In this document: one piece after another, positions 371 through 12,640 of the stretch
Layout: each line of letters opens with the position of its first letter
Numbering within the stretch: the first letter of the stretch is position 1
DNA from: a virus
Taxonomy: Duplodnaviria; Heunggongvirae; Uroviricota; Caudoviricetes
IMG/VR virus record: IMGVR_UViG_3300029577_000207
Direction: 5' to 3' (one strand)
DNA: 12,718 nucleotides
The notes under the pieces: generated by a model
Database searches by the model: none
What the model saw: only the letters and a program-made list of their open reading frames with translations
What the model was told of the DNA's origin: nothing
Position numbers and translations under genes: made by a program

Positions 371-748
371 TTATTTCGAACAATCAGCATCCATCTCCAA
401 TCGGAGATCCAATACCATCAGCATGCCCTCCACTACGCCCTCAGCTTTCTGGAGCATCCTGCCAACCCAACAATCAGATCGCCCATGCTTACGTGCAAGC
501 GCCATAAAAGTCATGCCGCCAACATAATAGTCCACCAATAAATCATGTAAATCGCTGTTGTTTTTTCTCAGGCGAGCCATACATTCACAAATGATCATCG
601 CGTCATCGTCACAGCATTGCGGACGAGATCTTACTTTTGAAGGAATTAATCCCTTAAAACCAGCGGCAATGGACGACCAGGTCACATCTTCATGATTATT
701 AGCCGCCCATGCCCCCCAACGCTCAAGAACCATCTGAATATCACGCAT
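371..748 (-). CDS. Late-gene antiterminator Q (phage 21/82 type, QuuD-like)
   Basis: The ORF begins [31 protein letters not shown]..., which I recall as near-identical to E. coli DLP12 QuuD. ATG at 748; the six-frame track's upstream extension to 763 starts with TTG. Sits at the distal end of the rightward operon, followed by a terminator. Confidence 0.75.
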
Positions 749-765
749 CAACTTACTCCACAAAA

Positions 766-1815
766 TTAGGCCAGCACACCAATTGCCAGCGCGCGATCGA
801 TAAATCGAAAAATCAGCTCCAGTTGGGAGCCATACTTCTCTTCAAATGCCACGGTATCCGTATGCAACTCGTCGTGATGCTTTCTGCACAAAGGCAACAC
901 AAAGAGATCATGTGCTTTGGTTCCCATTCCGCCCTGCCCGTGACCAATCAGATGATGCGGATCGTCGGCTGGCATCCCGCAGCAAGCACACGGCTGTGTC
1001 TTAACCCAGCGTGTGTATTTCTCCTTAACCCAACGGTGACGTTTAGGCAGCTTCATGAAAGATTCCGGAGACTCTGGATCAACGGTGATGCTTACCACCG
1101 TCTTTTCCTGTGATGGGTTTTGTTGCTGGTGGGCGTGAGGCAACGGTGCAAGATTTTTTGTGCGCTGTTTCAATATGCTGGTGGCGGTCTGCTCTCCCGG
1201 TACGATGTCGCTTTCGCGGTACACCGAGCAGATTTTTTCCGCTGGTAATCCCAGCGAGCGACGTAATACCGCTTCCGGTAGCGCGTCCGCCAGCTGATTG
1301 CGGAGCGCCCACCAGGATAATTCAGCCAGAGATAATTCACGCTCCTGCGTACCGCTTATTGCGTGACCGATGACGTCAATCATCCATGCTGACAGGTTTT
1401 GATGAGCAAGTTGCTCGAGTGATTCGGATGTCTGGTCACGCAGCTGGTTGTCGCAGTGCCAGCACAACACCATTGCGCCGGTACCATATCGGTGAATAAC
1501 GGTTTCGCTGTGATGATAATCGCCGTGTGGCCACTGGCAGGATTTAATATGGCGCAACAGCCAGTCAGACAATGCACCAGCACCACCAGCAGCACGAATT
1601 ACCCGTGCGTTACTGAAAAACGGCAGCAATGTTTTGTCTTCCACCAGCGGCTGGCGAACGGCAGGAACGACCCCGGACGGCAGATTACGCATGCTTTTCG
1701 GTTCCGGCTCCACCAGTACCCGGGTATTGTGGAATACCGGCATGGATTCACGGCCCGGCTTAACGACCACCAGCCCGAGTTCCGGTACCAGAACAGGTCG
1801 AAGTAATACCCGCAC
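766..1815 (-). CDS. ydfU: YdfU-like prophage protein with two HNH-like Cys/His clusters
   Basis: 349-aa ORF with GTG start at 1815 preceded by GGAGG; 1 nt after the stop of the upstream ORF. Contains [10 protein letters not shown]...H...CWHC and CACCG...HHLIGH...CRKHHDELH motifs. Position (between rem and Q) and length match my memory of K-12 Qin YdfU; the DUF968 assignment is from memory. Confidence 0.65.
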
Positions 1816-2629: not shown

Positions 2630-2785
2630 TTACTCCTCAGGTTCGTAAGCTGTGAAGACAGCGACCTCCGTCTGGCCGGTTCGGATTCGTACCTCGCAGA
2701 GGTCTTTCCTCGTTACCAGTGCCGTCACTATGACGGTTAAACAGATGACGATCAGGGCGATTAACATCGCCTTTTGCTGCTTCAT
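2630..2785 (-). CDS. hokD: Hok-family type I toxin (51 aa), HokD/RelF-like
   Basis: Translation MKQQKAMLIALIVICLTVIVTALVTRKDLCEVRIRTGQTEVAVFTAYEPEE matches HokD as I remember it. AAGGAG 9 nt upstream of the ATG at 2785. An in-frame upstream ATG at 2842 gives the 70-codon frame listed in the ORF track (mok-like leader). Confidence 0.85.
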   Translation of the reverse strand: MKQQKAMLIALIVICLTVIVTALVTRKDLCEVRIRTGQTEVAVFTAYEPEE

Positions 2786-2834
2786 AGCCTGCTTCTCCTT
2801 GCCTTTCGGCACGTAAGAGGCTAACCTACATGTG

Positions 2835-2906
2835 TCTAGCATGAAATTGGCCTCAGATTAATGTTAAGCGTCTTGCAGGACGCGTAATGTTAACTGGGGC
2901 TTTTCT
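2835..2906 (+). ncRNA. Putative Sok-like antisense RNA to the hok leader (boundaries approximate)
   Basis: + strand promoter-like TTGCCT (2799-2804), 17-nt spacer, TAACCT (2822-2827), antisense to the hok leader and mok-like start; small hairpin 2868-2883 and a T-rich run at 2900-2908. Inferred from hok/sok architecture, not from a recognised sequence. Confidence 0.3.
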
Positions 2907-2960
2907 CTATCTGCCGTTGGTGTTCATGCCCGAGGCAGATAGCCTCAAGCACCCGCAGCC

Positions 2961-3467: not shown

Positions 3468-4400
3468 TTAAGTTAGAAGCCGTTCCTCGTAATCGTCGGT
3501 TGTGGGCATTTTTCCGATCTCTGTCATGCGACACACTAATCGGGATAAAAGCACTCGTACCTCAATTATATGCTCAACTAAAAAGTTATCTGACGTAGCT
3601 CCCCCATGCACTGCCTTCGAACGGTAGTCATACAGCTTCTTAACCCTACGATAGGTGGCTAAACGATCAGGCCCTCGCTCCTCAAGATATGCTGCGGCCA
3701 TAAGAGCAAGACGAAAACGAAGCTCTGAATTGATTCCAAAGAGCGCTTCAAATCCTGCCCATAAAGCAGCAGCAGCCATTCTCAAATTCGCGTGTTGGTT
3801 GTGAGTAGTTAAAGAATCAATAGCGAGCCGGAATGCTGGTTGCTCTAGCAGATCTATCCAACGCTTGAGATTCTCTTGAACCCAGTCGAGAGACTCTACT
3901 GATATCTCTACACTTGGGCTTATTCTCCGAACTGCCGGCACGTCCTCAAGAAGTTGGACTTCACACGAGTTGGCTTGAAGAGCAGGGAATACATCCCAAG
4001 ATGCACTTGCTACTGCAGGAACAAGTATATCGGTGAGTGTGCGGCATCGGATCGCGGATATGATCCACCATCCGATAGTCAGGTCTGATTGAGAAAATTT
4101 CGACTCACTGCTTTGCAACGCAAGCTCATGCGTAACTGCGGGCATATGACGAGCAACAGCGCTGAGTAGCGACTTGCTCTTAAGCGCTTTGGCTAACTCT
4201 ATCTCTCCTGGTGGATGAAGTACCTCCCTTAATTCACCTACGTCTTGGAAAACATAAGGCCCGTTTCGAAACGTCAATCCTGACAAAGCGAAACAGATCT
4301 CATTCTGACTGGATAAACTAGATATTCGAGTTGCAGCGTATTTCTTGCGAGACTCGAAGTAGTTAAGTAAACCTGACAATTTTTCTTTGTTGATTTCCAT
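3468..4400 (-). CDS. Orphan 310-aa hypothetical protein; candidate HEPN-like effector (C-terminal R-x4-H-G motif)
   Basis: Uninterrupted 933-nt ORF with long non-coding flanks (189 bp upstream, about 620 bp downstream). No family recognised; motif YDYRSKAVHGG at residues about 258-268 (nt 3606-3623), about 50 residues from the C-terminus. Weak Shine-Dalgarno. Confidence 0.7.
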   Translation of the reverse strand: MEINKEKLSGLLNYFESRKKYAATRISSLSSQNEICFALSGLTFRNGPYVFQDVGELREVLHPPGEIELAKALKSKSLLSAVARHMPAVTHELALQSSESKFSQSDLTIGWWIISAIRCRTLTDILVPAVASASWDVFPALQANSCEVQLLEDVPAVRRISPSVEISVESLDWVQENLKRWIDLLEQPAFRLAIDSLTTHNQHANLRMAAAALWAGFEALFGINSELRFRLALMAAAYLEERGPDRLATYRRVKKLYDYRSKAVHGGATSDNFLVEHIIEVRVLLSRLVCRMTEIGKMPTTDDYEERLLT

Positions 4401-4589: not shown

Positions 4590-4991
4590 TTATCCCTGAT
4601 AAAATGCCAGTATGCGCTGCATAACTTCACTCATCCGGCACTCGCGACAGATTATGTTTAGGCGACTGTCGTAGCGACGTATTTCTCCATCAGGTAACGA
4701 CCAGATAAGGTCCGGATCAATCACAGCTGTTTTCTTCACCTTTGCCCTCGAGAGTTTTTTGCGGGCGTTTTGCCAGTCCTTACGCGCCTGTTCAGACGGG
4801 AATAACCCGTAACCAGAGCTGTATACATCGCCACTGGCAACCAGCTCTCTGGCCAGAACGCTCATCAGATATCTTGTTGCCCCAGTTTTAGCTTCCAGTT
4901 GTCGTAATGTCTCGCGCCCACTCTGGCGTACGAGTTCCACCACCTGCCCTTTAATTTTTTCCCGCTCTTCTTGTGTAAAAACTTTTGCCAC
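4590..4991 (-). CDS. Small (133 aa) protein with a predicted N-terminal winged-helix DNA-binding domain
   Basis: GTG start at 4991 with GGAGGA immediately upstream, 40 nt after the O-like stop. N-terminal region QVVELVRQSGRETLRQLEAKTGATRYLMSVLARELVASGDV has the pattern of PapI/FaeA-like winged-helix regulators (pattern-level similarity only). Confidence 0.65.
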   Translation of the reverse strand: MAKVFTQEEREKIKGQVVELVRQSGRETLRQLEAKTGATRYLMSVLARELVASGDVYSSGYGLFPSEQARKDWQNARKKLSRAKVKKTAVIDPDLIWSLPDGEIRRYDSRLNIICRECRMSEVMQRILAFYQG

Positions 4992-5031: not shown

Positions 5032-5997
5032 TTATCCCCTGAAACCAGGCGGAATTTCTGTATCCGGTTCAGAAATATGATTCACACAACGCTGTACAGG
5101 TGAACGTCCCAGGCGGATGACCAGTTCGTCCCATTTTTTGCGGAGTTTTGACGGGCTCATGATGTTTTTTACCCAGAATTGATCTCGCTGTACCCGACCA
5201 AACATTTCGCAAATTTGTCTGTGGCTTCTGCCATCCAGCATCCGCATTGTGCGCACGTCATTGGCCCAGGCTGTCCAGTTAGGCTCTTTTGGTCGCATGA
5301 TCTCTCCATCGTCGCTGGCAGCCTGTTCGTAAAGGTTCACGATCCGCCCCCAAATCCACTGCGCACACGCCAAATCCTCCCTGCTACCCCACTGGCGTTT
5401 TTTCGCACTAAACACAACCGCGTCGGGGTTCCGGGTTAAAAAATCCTGTTCAGCCGTCTGCGGGTCCGGTTGCGAAGCTTCCGGACGAAAAGTGTTTTTA
5501 TTCTCTGTAGTAATCTCTGTTGTATTCTCTGTAAGATCATCAGGCCATTTTGACCCGATGACATTGGGTCGTTTTGAACCAATGGAGCGTTTCATTTTGA
5601 CCTCTTCCATCGTGTCATTTTGACCTGATGGAGCGGCGCATTTTGAACTGATGGATTCGCTCAATTTGCCACCATCTAAAAGCTCGCTCCCGTAGTTGAT
5701 CGTGTAGAAATTGGTCATGTCGCGCTTTGATTTATTGAGCTTTTCGCAACGTAAAAGCCCCAGCGTTTTCAGACTTGCAAACGCGCGCTTTAACGTTGAC
5801 TCTGACCAGAACGGGAACTGTTCCAGCCATTGTTCCGTTGTGTTGTAAATCCAGCGAACACCATCACATTCCATGCCGGAATTGGTATCTCTCAACCAGT
5901 AATGCAACTGCTGCAACACAATGGCTTCGTTTAAGCCAATCTTCATCGCAAGCTGTGTGTTTATAACCAGTGGGCGTTCAGCAAAAAGAAGGCTCAT
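5032..5997 (-). CDS. Phage replication initiator (lambda O-like replisome organiser) containing the origin iterons
   Basis: N-terminal winged-helix region typical of O/DnaD-like initiators (...LNEAIVLQQLHYWL...WSESTLKRAFASLKTLGLL...), five direct repeats inside the coding sequence, and position after the cro/cII-like genes. First ATG at 5997; the track start at 6051 is TTG. Confidence 0.7.
   Translation of the reverse strand: MSLLFAERPLVINTQLAMKIGLNEAIVLQQLHYWLRDTNSGMECDGVRWIYNTTEQWLEQFPFWSESTLKRAFASLKTLGLLRCEKLNKSKRDMTNFYTINYGSELLDGGKLSESISSKCAAPSGQNDTMEEVKMKRSIGSKRPNVIGSKWPDDLTENTTEITTENKNTFRPEASQPDPQTAEQDFLTRNPDAVVFSAKKRQWGSREDLACAQWIWGRIVNLYEQAASDDGEIMRPKEPNWTAWANDVRTMRMLDGRSHRQICEMFGRVQRDQFWVKNIMSPSKLRKKWDELVIRLGRSPVQRCVNHISEPDTEIPPGFRG
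5546..5654. repeat. Replication origin iterons: five direct repeats of about 23 bp, consensus CATTTTGA(C/A)C..ATGG
   Basis: Repeat units begin at about 5546, 5570, 5593, 5616 and 5639 with a regular 23-24 bp period. Adjacent 5483-5540 is AT-rich with three TCTCTGT repeats that encode a T-T-E-rich linker in the O-like protein. Confidence 0.8.
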
Positions 5998-6499
5998 AAT
6001 TCCATCCAGCTTTTTGTTGGTATTGCTGTCGATACGCAAGTTTGAAAGCAATTGCTTTTTCTATAAGTTCGTCAGTTTCACGATCCACTACGGCAGGATC
6101 AGCAAAAAGCAGTCCGGACTCCACCACATCGCCATATTCTTTGTTTAACCCGGCGATCATGTACGTAATGCTTTTCCCGTCACTAATTTCACGATACAAC
6201 CTGAAATCACTAATCCGGATAGCCTCCATAATTGCAGGCACTAGCGCCGTGAACTTTTCACGCTTATCCCTGGTGTCAATAGCCTTCCAGCGTTCGAATA
6301 TCTTCACTCGATTAACGCCAAGCGCTCGCTGATCAACCGCGCCACCTTCATCTGTGACACGCTGAACATCGATGTTCGGGCGCTCTTTCAAAGACCAAAA
6401 TGCTTCAGTGATTAATATCGTCGCCTGCTCCTGTGTCATTCCTGGTCGACATATCCAGGCATCCAGAGCCTCACGAGCCTGTTCAGGAGTGATTTTCAT
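5978..6499 (-). CDS. Early-right operon protein at the YdaT/CII-equivalent position (function uncertain)
   Basis: 173-aa ORF with ATG at 6499, overlapping the dicC 3' end by 17 nt and the O-like start by 20 nt. Assignment is by position between cro-like and replication genes only. Confidence 0.5.
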   Translation of the reverse strand: MKITPEQAREALDAWICRPGMTQEQATILITEAFWSLKERPNIDVQRVTDEGGAVDQRALGVNRVKIFERWKAIDTRDKREKFTALVPAIMEAIRISDFRLYREISDGKSITYMIAGLNKEYGDVVESGLLFADPAVVDRETDELIEKAIAFKLAYRQQYQQKAGWNYEPSFC

Positions 6500-6710
6500 T
6501 GTTCAACCGCCCCGCCCGCTTCGTCTTACGATATTCGTCATAAACCTTGGGATCATACAGAAGCTCGCCGCCAGATGCCTCCTGTAGACGCATCGCGCGA
6601 CCTTCAGGAACCAGCTCTTGCCATTGAGAAACAGCAGATGGGTCAACGCCAGCAGCTTTCGCTACTTTGGCTTTCGTACCGTAAAAATTAATTACGTCTG
6701 ATTTAAACAT
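6483..6710 (-). CDS. dicC: Cro-like regulator DicC
   Basis: C-terminal sequence ...VPEGRAMRLQEASGGELLYDPKVYDEYRKTKRAGRLNNENHS matches DicC as I recall it. ATG at 6710 with GGGGGTG upstream; divergent from dicA. Confidence 0.75.
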   Translation of the reverse strand: MFKSDVINFYGTKAKVAKAAGVDPSAVSQWQELVPEGRAMRLQEASGGELLYDPKVYDEYRKTKRAGRLNNENHS

Positions 6711-6723
6711 CGCACCCCCAATA

Positions 6724-6737
6724 TTGAGTTTTCTCAA
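6724..6737. promoter_or_regulatory. Palindromic operator TTGAGTTTTCTCAA in the dicC-dicA divergent promoter region
   Basis: Perfect palindrome in the 77-bp dicC/dicA intergenic region. The same GAGTTTTCTCA core recurs at 7260-7273 and inverted at 7296-7305 upstream of ydfA. Confidence 0.55.
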
Positions 6738-6787
6738 TGCTAATCACTCAAGGAATCTCAAGTCAAGGGTTATTAAGATATCTAAAT

Positions 6788-7195
6788 ATGAACGAGAAAA
6801 CTTTAGGTCAACGCATTAGAGAAAGACGTAAGCAGGTAGGCTTAAGTCAAAACGGTTTAAGCAAAGCTGCTGGCGTATCTGGCTCATCAATTTCATTATG
6901 GGAAAGTGACCATACAGCCCCGCGCGGGCAAAATTTGCATCGCCTCGCCGAGGTATTGCAATGTTCACCAACCTGGATACTGTTTGGCGACGAGGACAAA
7001 ACACCAACTCCCCCTGTTTCACTCGATAGTGCCTTAGACTTATCGGAAGATGAGTTAGAGATGTTGCGTTTGTATCGCGCACTTCCTAAATCAGAGCAAC
7101 AAGCACAACTCAGCGAACTCCGCGCCCGCGTTGAGAATTTTAATCGCCTGTTCACCGAGCTATTAGAGGCTCGCAAACGCAACAAGCATCAATAA
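6788..7195 (+). CDS. dicA: Repressor DicA (cI-like HTH repressor of the dicB operon)
   Basis: 135-aa ORF MNEKTLGQRIRERRKQVGLSQNGLSKAAGVSGSSISLWESDHTAPRGQNLHRLAEVLQCSPTWILFGDEDK... closely resembles K-12 DicA. The track's start at 6737 is an upstream extension. Confidence 0.85.
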   Translation: MNEKTLGQRIRERRKQVGLSQNGLSKAAGVSGSSISLWESDHTAPRGQNLHRLAEVLQCSPTWILFGDEDKTPTPPVSLDSALDLSEDELEMLRLYRALPKSEQQAQLSELRARVENFNRLFTELLEARKRNKHQ

Positions 7196-8261: not shown

Positions 8262-8319
8262 TTTCTGGTGACGTTTGGCGGTATCAGTTTTACTCCGTGA
8301 CTGCTCTGCCGCCCTTTTT
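8262..8319 (+). ncRNA. dicF: DicF small RNA (53 nt plus U-tail), ftsZ-targeting sRNA of the dicB operon
   Basis: TTTCTGGTGACGTTTGGCGGTATCAGTTTTACTCCGTGACTGCTCTGCCGCCC followed by TTTTT matches the DicF sequence as I remember it; located between ydfC and dicB. Confidence 0.85.
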
Positions 8320-8958: not shown

Positions 8959-11430
8959 ATGAGTAAAGTCTTTATTTGCGCCGCTATTCCTGACGAACTG
9001 GCAACAAGGGAAGAAGGCGCTGTGGCTGTAGCCACAGCCATTGAAGCTGGCGACGAACGCCGTGCTCGAGCAAAATTTCACTGGCAGTTCCTGGAACATT
9101 ATCCGGCTGCTCAGGACTGCGCTTATAAATTTATTGTCTGCGAGGATAAACCTGGCATACCCCGCCCTGCCCTCGATTCATGGGATGCTGAATATATGCA
9201 GGAAAACCGCTGGGATGAGGAGTCTGCTTCTTTTGTCCCGGTTGAGACTGAATCCGATCCGATGAACGTCACTTTTGACAAGCTGGCCCCTGAAGTACAG
9301 AACGCTGTCATGGTTAAGTTCGACACATGTGAAAACATCACCGTTGATATGGTTATTAGCGCACAGGAATTGTTGCAGGAAGACATGGCAACATTCGACG
9401 GACATATCGTTGAAGCGTTGATGAAAATGCCAGAAGTTAACGCCATGTATCCGGAGCTTAAGTTGCACGCCATTGGGTGGGTTAAGCATAAATGTATTCC
9501 TGGTGCTAAATGGCCCGAAATTCAGGCAGAGATGCGCATCTGGAAAAAACGTCGCGAAGGTGAACGCAAGGAAACCGGAAAATACACGTCTGTTGTTGAT
9601 CTCGCCCGCGCCAGAACCAATCAACAGTACACTGAAAATTCAACAGGAAAAATCAGCCCGGTCATTGCTGCCATTCATCGCGAATACAAGCAGACATGGA
9701 AAACACTGGATGACGAACTGGCCTACGCTCTCTGGCCTGGTGATGTGGATGCCGGAAACATTGACGGCAGCATCCATCGCTGGGCAAAAAAAGAAGTTAT
9801 CGACAACGACCGCGAAGACTGGAAGCGTATCTCGGCATCAATGCGCAAACAGCCTGATGCCCTTCGCTACGACCGCCAGACTATTTTTGGCCTTGTCCGT
9901 GAGCGTCCGATCGACATTCACAAAGATCCCATAGCACTGAACAAATATATCTGCGAATACCTGACGACAAAGGGCGTGTTTGAGAATGAAGAAACAGACC
10001 TGGGCACTGTTGATGTTCTCCAGTCATCAGAAACACAAACTGATGCAGTGGAAACTGAGGTATCTGATATCCCAAAAAATGAAACCGCGCCGGAAGCTGA
10101 ACCATCTGTAGAGCGTGAGGGGCCGTTCTATTTCCTCTTCGCAGATAAGGACGGAGAAAAATACGGTCGCGCAAACAAACTTTCTGGTCTGGATAAGGCA
10201 CTGGCTGCTGGCGCCACTGAAATCACAAAAGAAGAATATTTTGCCCGAAAAAATGGCACATACACGGGCTTACCGCAAAATGTAGATACCGCTGAAGATT
10301 CAGAACAACCAGAGCCGATAAAAGTTACCGCTGACGAAGTAAACAAAATTATGCAGGCAGCCAATATCAGCCAGCCTGACGCCGATAAGTTGCTTGCTGC
10401 ATCACGTGGTGAATTTGTTGAAGGGATTAGTGACCCGAATGATCCGAAATGGGTTAAGGGGATCCAGACCCGCGATTCTGTGAACCAGAACCAGCATGAA
10501 TCGGAACGGAACTACCAAAAAGCGGAACAAAACAGCACAAATGCGTTACAAAACGAGCCAGAAACGAAACAGCCTGAACCAGTGGCGCAACTGGAAGTGG
10601 AAAAAGTCTGCACCGCCTGCGGTCAGACCGGCGGCGGCAACTGCCCTGATTGTGGCGCGGTGATGGGCGACGCAACATACCAGGAAACATTCGATGAAGA
10701 GTATCAGGTTGAAGTTCAGGAAGATGATCTGGAGGAAATGGAAGGCGCTGAACATCCACACAAGGAGAACACTGGCGGCAATCAGCATCACAATAGCGAT
10801 AATGAAACTGGCGAGACGGCAGATCACTCAATTAAGGTGAACGGTCATCACGAAATCACATCCACCAGCAGGACGTGTGACCATCTAATGATCGACCTTG
10901 AAACCATGGGAAAAAATCCTGATGCCCCGATCATCTCAATAGGTGCAATATTTTTCGATCCGCAAACCGGAGATATGGGACCGGAATTTAGTAAGACTAT
11001 CGATCTGGAAACTGCTGGCGGAGTCATTGATCGGGACACCATTAAATGGTGGCTTAAGCAATCACGCGAAGCGCAATCTGCCATTATGACCGATGAAATC
11101 CCGTTAGATGATGCACTGTTACAATTGCGGGAATTTATCGACGAAAACTCCGGTGAATTTTTTGTTCAGGTTTGGGGAAATGGAGCCAACTTCGACAACA
11201 CGATTTTGCGCCGTTCATACGAACGGCAGGGGATCCCCTGCCCGTGGCGTTACTACAACGATCGCGATGTACGCACAATCGTTGAGCTGGGGAAAGCCAT
11301 AGACTTCGATGCCAGAACGGCTATTCCATTCGAAGGTGAGCGCCATAATGCACTTGATGACGCCCGTTACCAGGCAAAATACGTTTCAGTTATCTGGCAA
11401 AAACTGATCCCGAGTCAGGCTGATTCTTAA
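8959..11430 (+). CDS. ydfE: YdfE-like large protein (823 aa) with C-terminal DnaQ-like (DEDDh) 3'-5' exonuclease domain and a CxxC-x8-CxxC zinc ribbon
   Basis: Exo I MIDLETMG, Exo II VWGNGANFDNTIL and Exo III HNALDDARYQ motifs in the last ~185 residues (about nt 10870-11427); CTACGQTGGGNCPDC at about nt 10609-10656; long acidic Q/E-rich linker. Gene symbol is by position after ydfD. Confidence 0.7.
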   Translation: MSKVFICAAIPDELATREEGAVAVATAIEAGDERRARAKFHWQFLEHYPAAQDCAYKFIVCEDKPGIPRPALDSWDAEYMQENRWDEESASFVPVETESDPMNVTFDKLAPEVQNAVMVKFDTCENITVDMVISAQELLQEDMATFDGHIVEALMKMPEVNAMYPELKLHAIGWVKHKCIPGAKWPEIQAEMRIWKKRREGERKETGKYTSVVDLARARTNQQYTENSTGKISPVIAAIHREYKQTWKTLDDELAYALWPGDVDAGNIDGSIHRWAKKEVIDNDREDWKRISASMRKQPDALRYDRQTIFGLVRERPIDIHKDPIALNKYICEYLTTKGVFENEETDLGTVDVLQSSETQTDAVETEVSDIPKNETAPEAEPSVEREGPFYFLFADKDGEKYGRANKLSGLDKALAAGATEITKEEYFARKNGTYTGLPQNVDTAEDSEQPEPIKVTADEVNKIMQAANISQPDADKLLAASRGEFVEGISDPNDPKWVKGIQTRDSVNQNQHESERNYQKAEQNSTNALQNEPETKQPEPVAQLEVEKVCTACGQTGGGNCPDCGAVMGDATYQETFDEEYQVEVQEDDLEEMEGAEHPHKENTGGNQHHNSDNETGETADHSIKVNGHHEITSTSRTCDHLMIDLETMGKNPDAPIISIGAIFFDPQTGDMGPEFSKTIDLETAGGVIDRDTIKWWLKQSREAQSAIMTDEIPLDDALLQLREFIDENSGEFFVQVWGNGANFDNTILRRSYERQGIPCPWRYYNDRDVRTIVELGKAIDFDARTAIPFEGERHNALDDARYQAKYVSVIWQKLIPSQADS

Positions 11431-11502: not shown

Positions 11503-11754
11503 ATGAGCGAAGTAATCATGATTGTCTCTCCCGGCAAATGGGTATCCGAAGAGCAGTTAATTGCGCTGAAAGGAATAAAAAAAGGTACGTTAAAAAAGGC
11601 CCGGAAAAAATCGTTTATGGAAGGAAGGGAATATAAGCATGTCGCTCATGACGGTATGCCATGGGATAACAGCCCATGCTTTTACAACCTGGAAGAAATT
11701 GATCGCTGGATTGAGCGCCAGGCATCAGCGAGACCAAGACGTCATCTTACTTGA
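11503..11754 (+). CDS. Excisionase (Xis-like)
   Basis: 83-aa ORF immediately upstream of the integrase, with a GREY motif region (FMEGREYKHVAHDG) reminiscent of lambda Xis (DGREYLFHESAV). Start codon choice (11503 vs 11518) uncertain. Confidence 0.6.
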   Translation: MSEVIMIVSPGKWVSEEQLIALKGIKKGTLKKARKKSFMEGREYKHVAHDGMPWDNSPCFYNLEEIDRWIERQASARPRRHLT

Positions 11755-11788
11755 CTAAAAGCCACACTAACTAATGAGAGAAGTTGAA

Positions 11789-12640
11789 ATGAAATATCCG
11801 ACAGGCGTGGAAAACCATGGAGGGAAATTACGTATCTGGTTTGTTTATAAAGGCGTAAGAGTCAGGGAAAATCTGGGGGTTCCTGACACAGCAAAAAACA
11901 GGCGCGTTGCAGGTGAACTACGCGCCTCTGTTTGTTACGCAATAAAAACTGGTGTTTTCGACTATGCAAAACAGTTTCCCTCCTCACGCAATCTGGAAAA
12001 ATTTGGTGAGGCCCGACAAGATTTAACCATAAAAGAACTGGCTGAAAAATTTCTGGCACTGAAAGAAACTGAAGTCGCAAAAACATCACTCAACACATAC
12101 CGTGCCGTCATCAAAAATATCCTGAGCATAATCGGTGAAAAAAATCTTGCCTCATCGATTAATAAAGAAAAATTACTGGAGGTTCGTAAAGAGCTACTGA
12201 CTGGATACCAGATCCCCAAAAGTAACTATATTGTTACACAACCAGGGAGATCGGCTGTAACTGTAAATAATTACATGACAAATCTTAACGCCGTGTTCCA
12301 GTTTGGTGTTGATAACGGTTACTTGGCAGATAACCCGTTTAAGGGGATCTCGCCATTAAAGGAATCAAGAACCATTCCGGATCCTCTTTCGCGGGAGGAA
12401 TTCATCCGTCTTATCGATGCGTGCAGAAATCAGCAAGCCAAAAATTTATGGTGTGTTTCTGTTTATACTGGCGTTCGCCCTGGTGAGCTGTGTGCACTTG
12501 GATGGGAGGACATAGATCTGAAAAATGGAACAATGATGATCAGGAGAAATTTAGCAAAAGACCGTTTCACGGTACCAAAAACACAGGCGGGAACCAATCG
12601 GGTCATTCATCTTATTAAGCCAGCAATCGACGCTCTCTGA
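11789..12640 (+). pseudogene. Tyrosine-recombinase phage integrase, 3'-truncated by IS3
   Basis: N-terminal SAM-like domain and the first catalytic Arg region (TGVRPGELCALGWEDIDL) are present, but the ORF ends after about 283 codons with a TGA supplied by the first three bases of the IS3 terminus (12638-12640). The downstream His/Arg/Tyr catalytic residues are missing. Confidence 0.8.

Follow-up and report, generated by a model that had tools for sequence, protein, structure and literature searches.

Among the described replication systems, the closest to the element reported here is ori of bacteriophage lambda, which lies inside the gene of its own initiator O, in the part encoding the linker between the DNA-binding and C-terminal domains, and in which the iterons are followed, along transcription, by a purine-rich, AT-rich segment. 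The same arrangement is found in an O-like initiator gene on a 12,718-nucleotide stretch of caudoviral DNA (IMG/VR record IMGVR_UViG_3300029577_000207), the whole of which we call the window (12.7 kb). With a probability of roughly 0.85, we conclude that a lambdoid (Qin/mEp460-like) prophage has its vegetative replication origin in the iterons and the three tandem 12-mers of this gene, and so within the gene of its own initiator. The lambda iteron, ATCCCTCAAAACGAGGGA, shares with those of the window the dyad arms around a TCAAAA-type core and a spacing of about two turns; the C-domains of the two initiators are homologous (34% identity), and the genes follow in the order cro, cII-like and O. 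The two systems differ, however, in that lambda has four iterons of 18–19 bp and of another sequence, against five (or six) of 23 bp in the window; in that lambda O has a PF04492 N-domain, whereas the N-domain of the window has no detectable similarity to it; in that lambda has no ACAGAGAnTACn 12-mers, three copies of which make up the putative unwinding segment of the window; and in that lambda has a P gene and an O with its own C-terminal end, whereas the window has no P and its initiator carries a DnaT-like tail.

A second in-gene origin is oriL of phage SPP1, where 'AB boxes' bound by the initiator G38P and an adjoining DNA-unwinding element (DUE) lie within gene 38 (PMC5737612), so that, as in the window, initiator-binding repeats and a DUE are embedded in the initiator gene. 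G38P is likewise a modular initiator with a purine-rich repetitive linker, and its label 'DnaD-like helicase loader' is shared with PHROG families that match the N-terminal part of the window protein. In contrast, the genes directly downstream in SPP1 encode a phage loader, G39P, and a helicase, G40P; of the G38P/oriL type, the window has the embedded origin, and the downstream loader and helicase genes are missing. At oriC and in the 13-mers of RK2 oriV, short tandem repeats also lie beside the initiator sites in the melting region. Such repeats are bound strand-specifically by DnaA or Rep, with the exact sequence mattering beyond AT content (PMC10797057; PMC4081077), and are described as replicon-specific (PMC10797057); they are reported to vary between replicons, whereas ACAGAGAnTACn is common to initiators with unrelated iterons and C-domains, across phyla.

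Two further proteins are related to the initiator at most in part. The best structural match of the predicted N-domain fold, taken from an AlphaFold2 (AF2) model of moderate confidence, is the N-domain of staphylococcal pSK41 RepA (PDB 4PTA), yet the RepA_N plasmid initiators of Gram-positive bacteria differ in their plasmid rather than phage context, and the window protein has no match to Pfam RepA_N at E up to 10. The likeness to Escherichia coli DnaT is limited to the last 21 residues (15 of 21 identical), and nothing else matches. Taken together, the element is most probably a lambda-type in-gene origin in which the winged-helix N-domain is not that of lambda, the iteron specificity is new, a phage loader is missing and the putative unwinding motif is one found across phyla. 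It has the in-gene position, at least four dyad iterons, an AT-rich, strand-asymmetric segment after them and iterons that co-segregate with the N-domain, all of which mark a lambda-type origin; of the marks of the lambda O family, it has the C-domain and lacks both the PF04492 N-domain and the O-P module.

The iteron array and the 12-mer block

An earlier, preliminary description of this DNA had placed five direct repeats with a 23–24-bp period in the middle of the O-like gene, in a segment at 5483–5654, and had likened the arrangement to lambda ori. A search of the window for the iteron core CRTTTTGAMC, with 200 shuffles as control, bears this out: the core occurs five times, always on the plus strand within 5546–5648, against 0.23 expected, with start-to-start distances of 24, 23, 23 and 23 bp, and none of the 200 shuffles reached five. 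The iterons and three TCTCTGT repeats together span 5497–5653, and the repeats occupy nucleotides 322–501 of the gene (amino acids 108–167), between two predicted folded domains. Since the gene lies on the minus strand, the motifs on the gene strand read CATCrGGTCAAAATG...GATG and ACAGAGA. The features of the locus, in the direction of transcription, are as follows.

6737–6766, minus strand: candidate pR-like promoter upstream of cro, from which transcription would cross cro, the cII-like gene and O, origin included (consensus scan, 9 of 12 positions matching)
5032–5997, minus strand: O-like replication initiator gene, 321 amino acids, holding the whole origin (open reading frame (ORF) list; ATG as annotated in HannyBb and PhiR42_1)
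5674–5967, minus strand: N-terminal winged-helix-like domain, amino acids 11–108, presumed to bind the iterons (AF2, predicted local distance difference test (pLDDT) 66–82; helix-helix-hairpin-helix-helix-hairpin)
5654–5676, minus strand: degenerate sixth iteron, promoter-proximal, GATGGTGGCAAATTGAGCGAATC (in 23-bp register with the array)
5631–5653, minus strand: iteron 1, CATCAGTTCAAAATGCGCCGCTC (this and the next four by repeat search and core count)
5608–5630, minus strand: iteron 2, CATCAGGTCAAAATGACACGATG, dyad-symmetric
5585–5607, minus strand: iteron 3, GAAGAGGTCAAAATGAAACGCTC
5562–5584, minus strand: iteron 4, CATTGGTTCAAAACGACCCAATG, dyad-symmetric
5538–5560, minus strand: iteron 5, CATCGGGTCAAAATGGCCTGATG, dyad-symmetric, with a core invariant in 71 relatives
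5488–5537, no strand assigned: AT maximum of the gene over 50 bp, 72% AT against 51% for the gene (composition scan; gene strand purine-rich)
5497–5532, minus strand: three tandem 12-nucleotide units, consensus ACAGAGAnTACn, namely ACAGAGAATACA, ACAGAGATTACT and ACAGAGAATAAA (repeat search; proposed DNA-unwinding or helicase-entry element)
5113–5451, minus strand: helical C-domain, amino acids 183–295, homologue of the lambda O C-domain (BLASTP E=7e-28; AF2 pLDDT 57–80)

The iteron consensus on the gene strand is CATCrGGTCAAAATGnCnyGATG. Read from the sequence, the iterons at 5538, 5562 and 5608 have 7–8 of 9 arm positions symmetric around the centre of the A-tract, and the repeat search gave 78% complementarity for the arms of 5538–5560 and 5608–5630. 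Relatives carry a better copy of the sixth iteron, GGTCAAAGTG, at the position matching 5654–5676; the extent first proposed thus covers the five-copy array, and its end coordinate falls short of this degenerate copy. The other differences from lambda in iteron sequence, number and period had been correctly noted at the outset.

The TCTCTGT repeats start at 5502, 5514 and 5526, at a spacing of exactly 12 bp (five occurrences in the whole window against 1.35 expected), and the repeat search returned a 12-nucleotide tandem family of three copies at 5499–5534. The surrounding segment, which had been described simply as AT-rich, has a GC fraction of 0.36 across 5475–5549 and is 60% purine on the gene strand over the 50 nucleotides of 5486–5535; it is moderately AT-rich, at 72% over the maximum, and is better described as three tandem 12-nucleotide units. 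The consensus scan found no promoters or terminators around the origin beyond shuffled expectation, and the only match in the window to the DnaA box TTWTNCACA, at 4972–4980, lies outside the origin and is at chance level.

A GATC (Dam) site stands at 5535–5538, exactly where the last iteron meets the first 12-mer. It is kept in some iteron types and missing in others, and in several relatives (mEp460_4F5, Klebsiella phages) the initiator gene is followed, one or two genes downstream, by a gene for a Dam-type methylase.

The initiator itself was delimited by adopting the ATG at 5997 from HannyBb and PhiR42_1, the program-made ORF being 5032–6051. The protein falls into PHROG 391, 'replication initiation O-like' (7.7e-93), and its N-terminal part also matches PHROG families labelled 'DnaD-like helicase loader'. 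Residues 147–294 align with the C-terminal half of lambda O (34% identity over 148 amino acids, E=7e-28, BLASTP), and the alignment sets the peptide of the lambda AT-rich coding stretch, TKDTITKEK, exactly onto the 12-mer-encoded TENTTEITTEN. Pfam gave no real family for the protein, an E value of up to 10 yielding only chance-level Slx4 and YLR146W-A; neither PF04492 (Phage_rep_O), in which lambda O scores 5.7e-36, nor RepA_N was matched at that threshold, and a PDB sequence search found no solved relative of the N- or C-domain. The AF2 model, built on a multiple sequence alignment of 15 sequences (70–99% identity) and with a mean pLDDT of 56, was used for domain boundaries and a fold lead only. 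In this model, amino acids 109–175 are unstructured (pLDDT about 25) and 297–321 form a disordered tail. The iterons and 12-mers encode the first of these segments, the linker, a visibly repetitive peptide (SKxxxPSGQ..., TENTTEITTEN). The position of the origin between N- and C-domain parts, with the iterons and then the AT-rich block along transcription, is therefore that of lambda, as had been proposed.

By analogy with lambda, replication would proceed as follows. Transcription from the promoter on the cro side would yield the O-like protein, whose N-terminal winged-helix dimers would bind the five (perhaps six) iterons at 5538–5653 (or to 5676) and form a complex like the lambda 'O-some'. 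This complex, together with supercoiling and transcription, would open the three ACAGAGAnTACn units (5497–5532), the opened block standing in for the AT-rich region of lambda or the 13-mers of oriC and RK2. Host DnaB might then be loaded onto the opened DNA, using host DnaC; as no phage loader is encoded, recruitment would have to rely on the initiator's C-terminal domain, its DnaT-like tail, or both. We infer iteron binding from the architecture, the moderate-confidence model and the co-variation described below, since the N-domain has neither a Pfam family nor detectable sequence similarity to that of lambda O.

Selection on the DNA and coupling of the iterons to the N-domain

Codon-position variability was computed over 71 distinct relatives of the same iteron type. 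In the N-domain it was 0.054, 0.029 and 0.195 at positions 1, 2 and 3, which is the usual protein-coding pattern; the corresponding values were 0.018, 0.044 and 0.033 in the iteron cores and 0.087, 0.082 and 0.071 in the spacers. In the origin segment synonymous sites are thus protected and amino-acid-changing sites relaxed, the variability at first and second positions being higher in the linker than in the N-domain. This profile, the reverse of that left by selection on a protein, marks selection on the nucleotide sequence itself.

The iterons had also been proposed to define the specificity of the initiator. An exact-match scan of viral contigs with the 31-nucleotide 12-mer block returned at least 120 loci, and among the matches listed the block follows at least five iteron types, namely GGTCAAAATG (the type of the window), GATGAGGGCAAATTGCCCTCATC, GATAGGGACAATTTGTCCCTATC, the GGGAAACCC/TTTTCGGGAAA type and others. 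Every iteron type comes with its own variant of the N-domain or with an unrelated N-domain (types A to D compared), and in Pantoea and Klebsiella relatives the iterons have diverged while the 12-mer block is unchanged. We examined 5995 pairs for discordance between the two domains. Where the N-domains were the same (at least 80%) and the C-domains unrelated (below 30%), the median identity of the iteron region was 0.76 (n=20); where the N-domains were unrelated (below 40%) and the C-domains the same (at least 80%), it was 0.30, in a class of only four pairs; the background, with both domains unrelated, was 0.27 (n=4278). These values support an exchange in which the iterons accompany the N-domain rather than the C-domain, as the lambda paradigm predicts, and they agree with the proposed tie between iterons and initiator specificity.

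Several observations weigh against an in-gene origin of this kind. The N-domain presumed to bind the iterons belongs to no Pfam family and has no detectable sequence similarity to that of lambda O, and its model is of moderate confidence (mean pLDDT 56). The co-variation is confounded by physical linkage, since the iterons adjoin the part of the gene coding for the N-domain, and its critical discordant class is small (n=4). The 12-mer block, where melting would start, is only 72% AT. The match to a pR-like promoter is no better than shuffled expectation. No helicase loader is encoded, the recruitment route being a hypothesis, and neither this module nor any other O-only lambdoid module has been the subject of an experiment (PMC12315714).

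The want of a loader also underlies an alternative, improbable in our view, in which the origin is a relic in this prophage and autonomous replication has been lost. No homologue of P, DnaC or DnaB stands beside the initiator in the window, or in HannyBb, PhiR42_1, mEp460_4F5, the Klebsiella and Pantoea phages and the other enterobacterial relatives examined; the preliminary description, too, had seen no loader gene, and the next genes downstream proved to be a DUF977/Ren-like gene and a member of a PHROG family of unknown function. The window, moreover, resembles the defective K-12 Qin in the dicA/dicC/DicF region. Several findings speak against a relic: an intact O gene, with 98.9% identity to its counterpart in mEp460_ev081; a layout without a loader in isolated phages too; purifying selection on the iteron cores among the 71 variants; and the recognition of O-only modules as a class among lambdoid phages that appear viable (PMC12315714). 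The origin is probably functional despite the missing loader, because isolated or induced phages carry a gene 96.6–98.9% identical, with the same iterons and no loader.

In a second alternative, which we rate as quite improbable, the iterons serve mainly for control, that is for autoregulation, copy-number 'handcuffing' or exclusion of related phages, and replication starts elsewhere. Plasmid iterons do have dual roles, cloned phage origins inhibit cognate phages (the lambda 'inhibition phenotype', PMC3349717), and a decoy function is conceivable for the orphan copies carried by small plasmids such as pBSG3. However, the layout fits the experimentally defined origins of lambda and SPP1, with iterons and an unwinding element in the initiator gene; the core search found no second iteron cluster in the 12.7-kb window; and control roles are compatible with origin function.

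Hardly credible, finally, is that these are coding repeats only, produced by tandem duplication in a low-complexity linker and without a cis-acting role: although the segment is translated, lies in a predicted disordered linker tolerant of slippage repeats and encodes a repetitive peptide (SKxxxPSGQ..., TENTTEITTEN), this is largely refuted by the reversed codon profile with its conserved third and relaxed first and second positions, by the switching of iteron type with the N-domain, by the 12-mers, whose synonymous sites are fixed and whose amino-acid-changing position varies, and by the occurrence of the iteron-plus-12-mer arrangement in non-coding DNA.

The ACAGAGAnTACn 12-mer in other replicons

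Beyond the close relatives, genomes were scanned with the query ACAGAGANTACNACAGAGANTAC, one genome per species, which gave at least 120 matches, whereas about one would be expected for 20 fixed bases in 596 Gb (our calculation, assuming uniform base composition). The matches listed include sources as different as Pseudomonas, Acinetobacter, Xenorhabdus, Desulfuromonas, Bacillus, Clostridia and Lachnospiraceae, and further cyanobacteria, Chloroflexi, Nitrospirae and Gracilibacteria. In 98 of 120 cases among them, the reading frame through the motif gives TE[NITS]T, midway along an ORF of 270–470 amino acids. Periodic repeats (z>3) were present in the 135 nucleotides directly upstream in 91% of the 91 analysable loci, and in only 4% of the same loci in a control segment 190 nucleotides further up. 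The upstream repeats differ in sequence between all loci, and their period, among 83 loci, was 23 bp in 53, 22 bp in 16, 21 bp in 5 and 24 bp in 4. The number of 12-mer units per locus had its mode at three (52 of 91). With its three units and the modal 23-bp period, the window belongs to this ACAGAGAnTACn-type class of two to four tandem units placed mid-gene after iterons of 21–24-bp period in a modular initiator.

The proteins encoded around the motif are diverse. For nine diverse members, Pfam found no family in the N-domains, and the C-domains were DnaB_2/DnaD-like, Phg_2220_C, DUF6017 or none of these. Among isolated phages, replication-initiator genes contain the motif in those of Acinetobacter, Bacillus, Staphylococcus, Klebsiella and Vibrio, in Stx phages, and in those of Burkholderia, Erwinia, Xanthomonas, Synechococcus and Pseudomonas. 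On the E. coli plasmid pF17EC0245-1 (L351, 1953–5046), the block is in a 'replication protein' gene followed by genes for a DnaC-like ATPase and a DnaB-like helicase; origins of this type thus occur in modules with loader genes as well as in modules that lack them. SPP1 gene 38 was considered as a further carrier and rejected, as it holds only one ACAGAGA among other purine-rich repeats of 11–12 nucleotides.

Codon usage within the units is almost fixed. In adjacent, unforced TExT units, Thr was ACA in 41 of 47 cases (87%, background 30%) and Glu was GAG in 39 of 47 (83%, background 41%), and this usage holds across hosts of very different GC content. When the scan was made fully degenerate for Thr and Glu codons, initiator contexts had almost only ACA and GAG, with two initiator-context loci using GAA, and the ACT/GAA matches were unrelated low-complexity proteins rich in T and E. 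Only position 8 of the unit varies freely; it falls on the second base of a codon, so that the residue switches between Asn, Ile, Thr and Ser.

Copies also exist outside coding sequence. The 8.4-kb Bacillus plasmid pBSG3 (NC_014104, L350, 746–842) carries three CCTACAGGGAAA repeats at 22–23-bp spacing and then ACAGAGATTACT, with two complete 12-mer units and a third shortened to ACAGAGATT; there is no long ORF in the TExT frame and no annotated gene at this site, which lies about 550 nucleotides upstream of a rolling-circle rep. Further orphan copies of iterons plus 12-mers, without an initiator ORF through them, were found at loci L143, L153, L185 and L195. They may serve as decoys against phages, or represent origins that hitch-hike or remnants.

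Since synonymous codons are almost fixed, the residue-changing position varies and non-coding copies exist, selection acts on the motif as DNA. A selection for the peptide instead, the TExT repeats forming for example a protein-interaction or phosphorylation linker, would fit the shared TE[NITS]T frame inside a long ORF in 98 of 120 matches listed; we regard it as very improbable, given that ACA and GAG are almost fixed while residue x may be Asn, Ile, Thr or Ser, that the pattern holds in hosts of very different GC content, and that further copies of the block lie in non-coding DNA or out of frame.

Selection of ACAGAGAnTACn as DNA appears, on this evidence, to extend over initiator genes of phages, prophages and plasmids of Gamma- and Deltaproteobacteria, Firmicutes, Cyanobacteria, Chloroflexi and the candidate phyla radiation (CPR), and the motif seems to be kept irrespective of which iterons precede it, which C-terminal adaptor domain the initiator has and whether loader genes are present. 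Conservation across such unrelated systems argues for sequence-specific recognition, of double- or single-stranded DNA, by some common factor; this reader could be a surface conserved among the winged-helix initiators, or else a replication protein common to all the hosts, for example DnaB or primase. We propose tentatively, as possible rather than probable, that ACAGAGAnTACn is an origin-core element, present in two to four tandem copies after initiator-specific iterons and conserved at the DNA level across phyla, which would imply a shared recognition, and that enterobacterial O-only initiators in addition mimic the DnaT tail for DnaB-DnaC loading by the host. Such sequence-specific conservation contradicts the usual, replicon-specific view of unwinding repeats (PMC10797057) and raises the question of the reader. 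The 12-mer may also serve as a cheap sequence tag by which to locate the origin and its initiator where a phage, prophage or plasmid is uncharacterised and the initiator N-domain has no Pfam family. Searches of open-access full texts, also for the literal ACAGAGAATAC, found nothing relevant on either the 12-mer or the DnaT-like tail, which is no proof of novelty.

The DnaT-like tail and the prophage context

O-only modules were found in 34 of 314 lambdoid phages and their replication was called 'not yet understood' in a 2025 survey (Zheng et al. 2025, PMC12315714), according to which they had never been studied. In the present module, the candidate for recruitment of the host machinery is the end of the initiator.

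5035–5097, minus strand: last 21 amino acids, VQRCVNHISEPDTEIPPGFRG, a near-copy of the C-terminus of host DnaT and a candidate host-recruitment motif (phmmer against PDB)

The protein ends in VNHISEPDTEIPPGFRG, which aligns with DnaT 159–179 (15 of 21 identical, phmmer against PDB) in the shared pattern ...SEPDxxIPPGFRG. The NCBIfam model for DnaT, NF002770, scores 16.4 bits against a cutoff of 201 and covers profile positions 160–179 only. 'Primosomal protein I' (DnaT) was therefore rejected as a family assignment, the match being limited to these 21 residues, and the same label on the mEp460 records was probably transferred from the tail only.

Initiators of Escherichia, Klebsiella, Pantoea and Scandinavium share an [IV]PxGFRG ending even where their C-domains are unrelated, and among the matches listed (a species-level sample) this ending was found only in Enterobacterales; related -GFR/-GFK endings occur too, such as SGFRVVG in Xenorhabdus. 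In three initiators with the same origin layout (L071, L103 and L209), a C-terminal segment (…FRMYWEPTGRCFHHTQWIQKFVQRLKSDL…) replaces the lambda-O-like domain and appears, by eye, to resemble the DnaT C-domain. In DnaT, removal of residues 154–179 lowers the affinity for single-stranded DNA and the cooperativity of binding (PMC4132743), and the available part of a 2026 report on preprimosome structures does not discuss the DnaT tail (PMC13377028). Our hypothesis is that the initiator mimics this tail so as to reach the DnaB-DnaC loading machinery of the host; if true, it could join host helicase loading without a phage loader. A tblastn screen gave a loader or helicase match for 8 of 53 initiators with the tail and 29 of 72 without it, a difference that is weak, not phylogenetically independent and not relied on here; the eight exceptions match DnaC/IstB-like ATPases and may be IS21. 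The origin, the modular initiator and the DnaT-like tail thus offer a concrete O-only system with few testable host partners.

This system is common. The O-like gene shares 98.9% identity with its counterpart in mEp460_ev081, 97.3% with that in HannyBb and 96.6% with that in PhiR42_1, and a locus in E. coli MY203L1 matches it at 100%. At a coverage of at least 80%, the module was present in 1749 of 5426 complete E. coli genomes, so that a lambda-style origin with a new iteron specificity occurs in about one third of them. Identity with oriJ/YdaU of K-12 Rac was rejected, YdaU being a DUF1376 protein of a different family that is followed by the DnaC-like YdaV.

Judged from its gene content, the window represents early-region DNA of a Qin/mEp460-type lambdoid prophage; apart from the O-like gene, it has the following features.

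11774–12640, plus strand: integrase
11503–11754, plus strand: excisionase
8959–11430, plus strand: RecE-like exonuclease
8263–8314, plus strand: DicF small RNA (Rfam RF00039, 76.7 bits)
6737–7195, plus strand: cI-like repressor
6483–6737, minus strand: cro
5978–6499, minus strand: cII/YdaT-like gene
4590–4991, minus strand: DUF977/Ren-like gene, 133 amino acids ('Ren-like exclusion protein'; LygF in PhiR42_1)
3468–4400, minus strand: 310-amino-acid ORF, matching only PHROG 28161 (unknown function, 1.2e-179), with no Pfam or NCBIfam match
2630–2954, minus strand: hok/sok-type toxin-antitoxin module (sok antisense RNA, RF01794, 115 bits, at 2780–2954; MokW/Hok-like ORF at 2630–2842)
766–1815, minus strand: HNH endonuclease
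371–763, minus strand: Q

The DUF977/Ren-like gene takes the place of lambda P and is constantly next to O in the E. coli members; from its family matches and small size, its product is unlikely to be a helicase loader. The 310-amino-acid ORF, placed between the genes for replication and those for late regulation, may be a moron or defence cargo, because HannyBb and PhiR42_1 hold different genes at that position. On the other side of the initiator, the cII/YdaT-like gene extends 20 nucleotides into the start of the O-like gene (5978–5997), which suggests translational coupling. DicF sits in the leftward operon between a ydfC-like ORF and the RecE-like gene, as it does in K-12 Qin.

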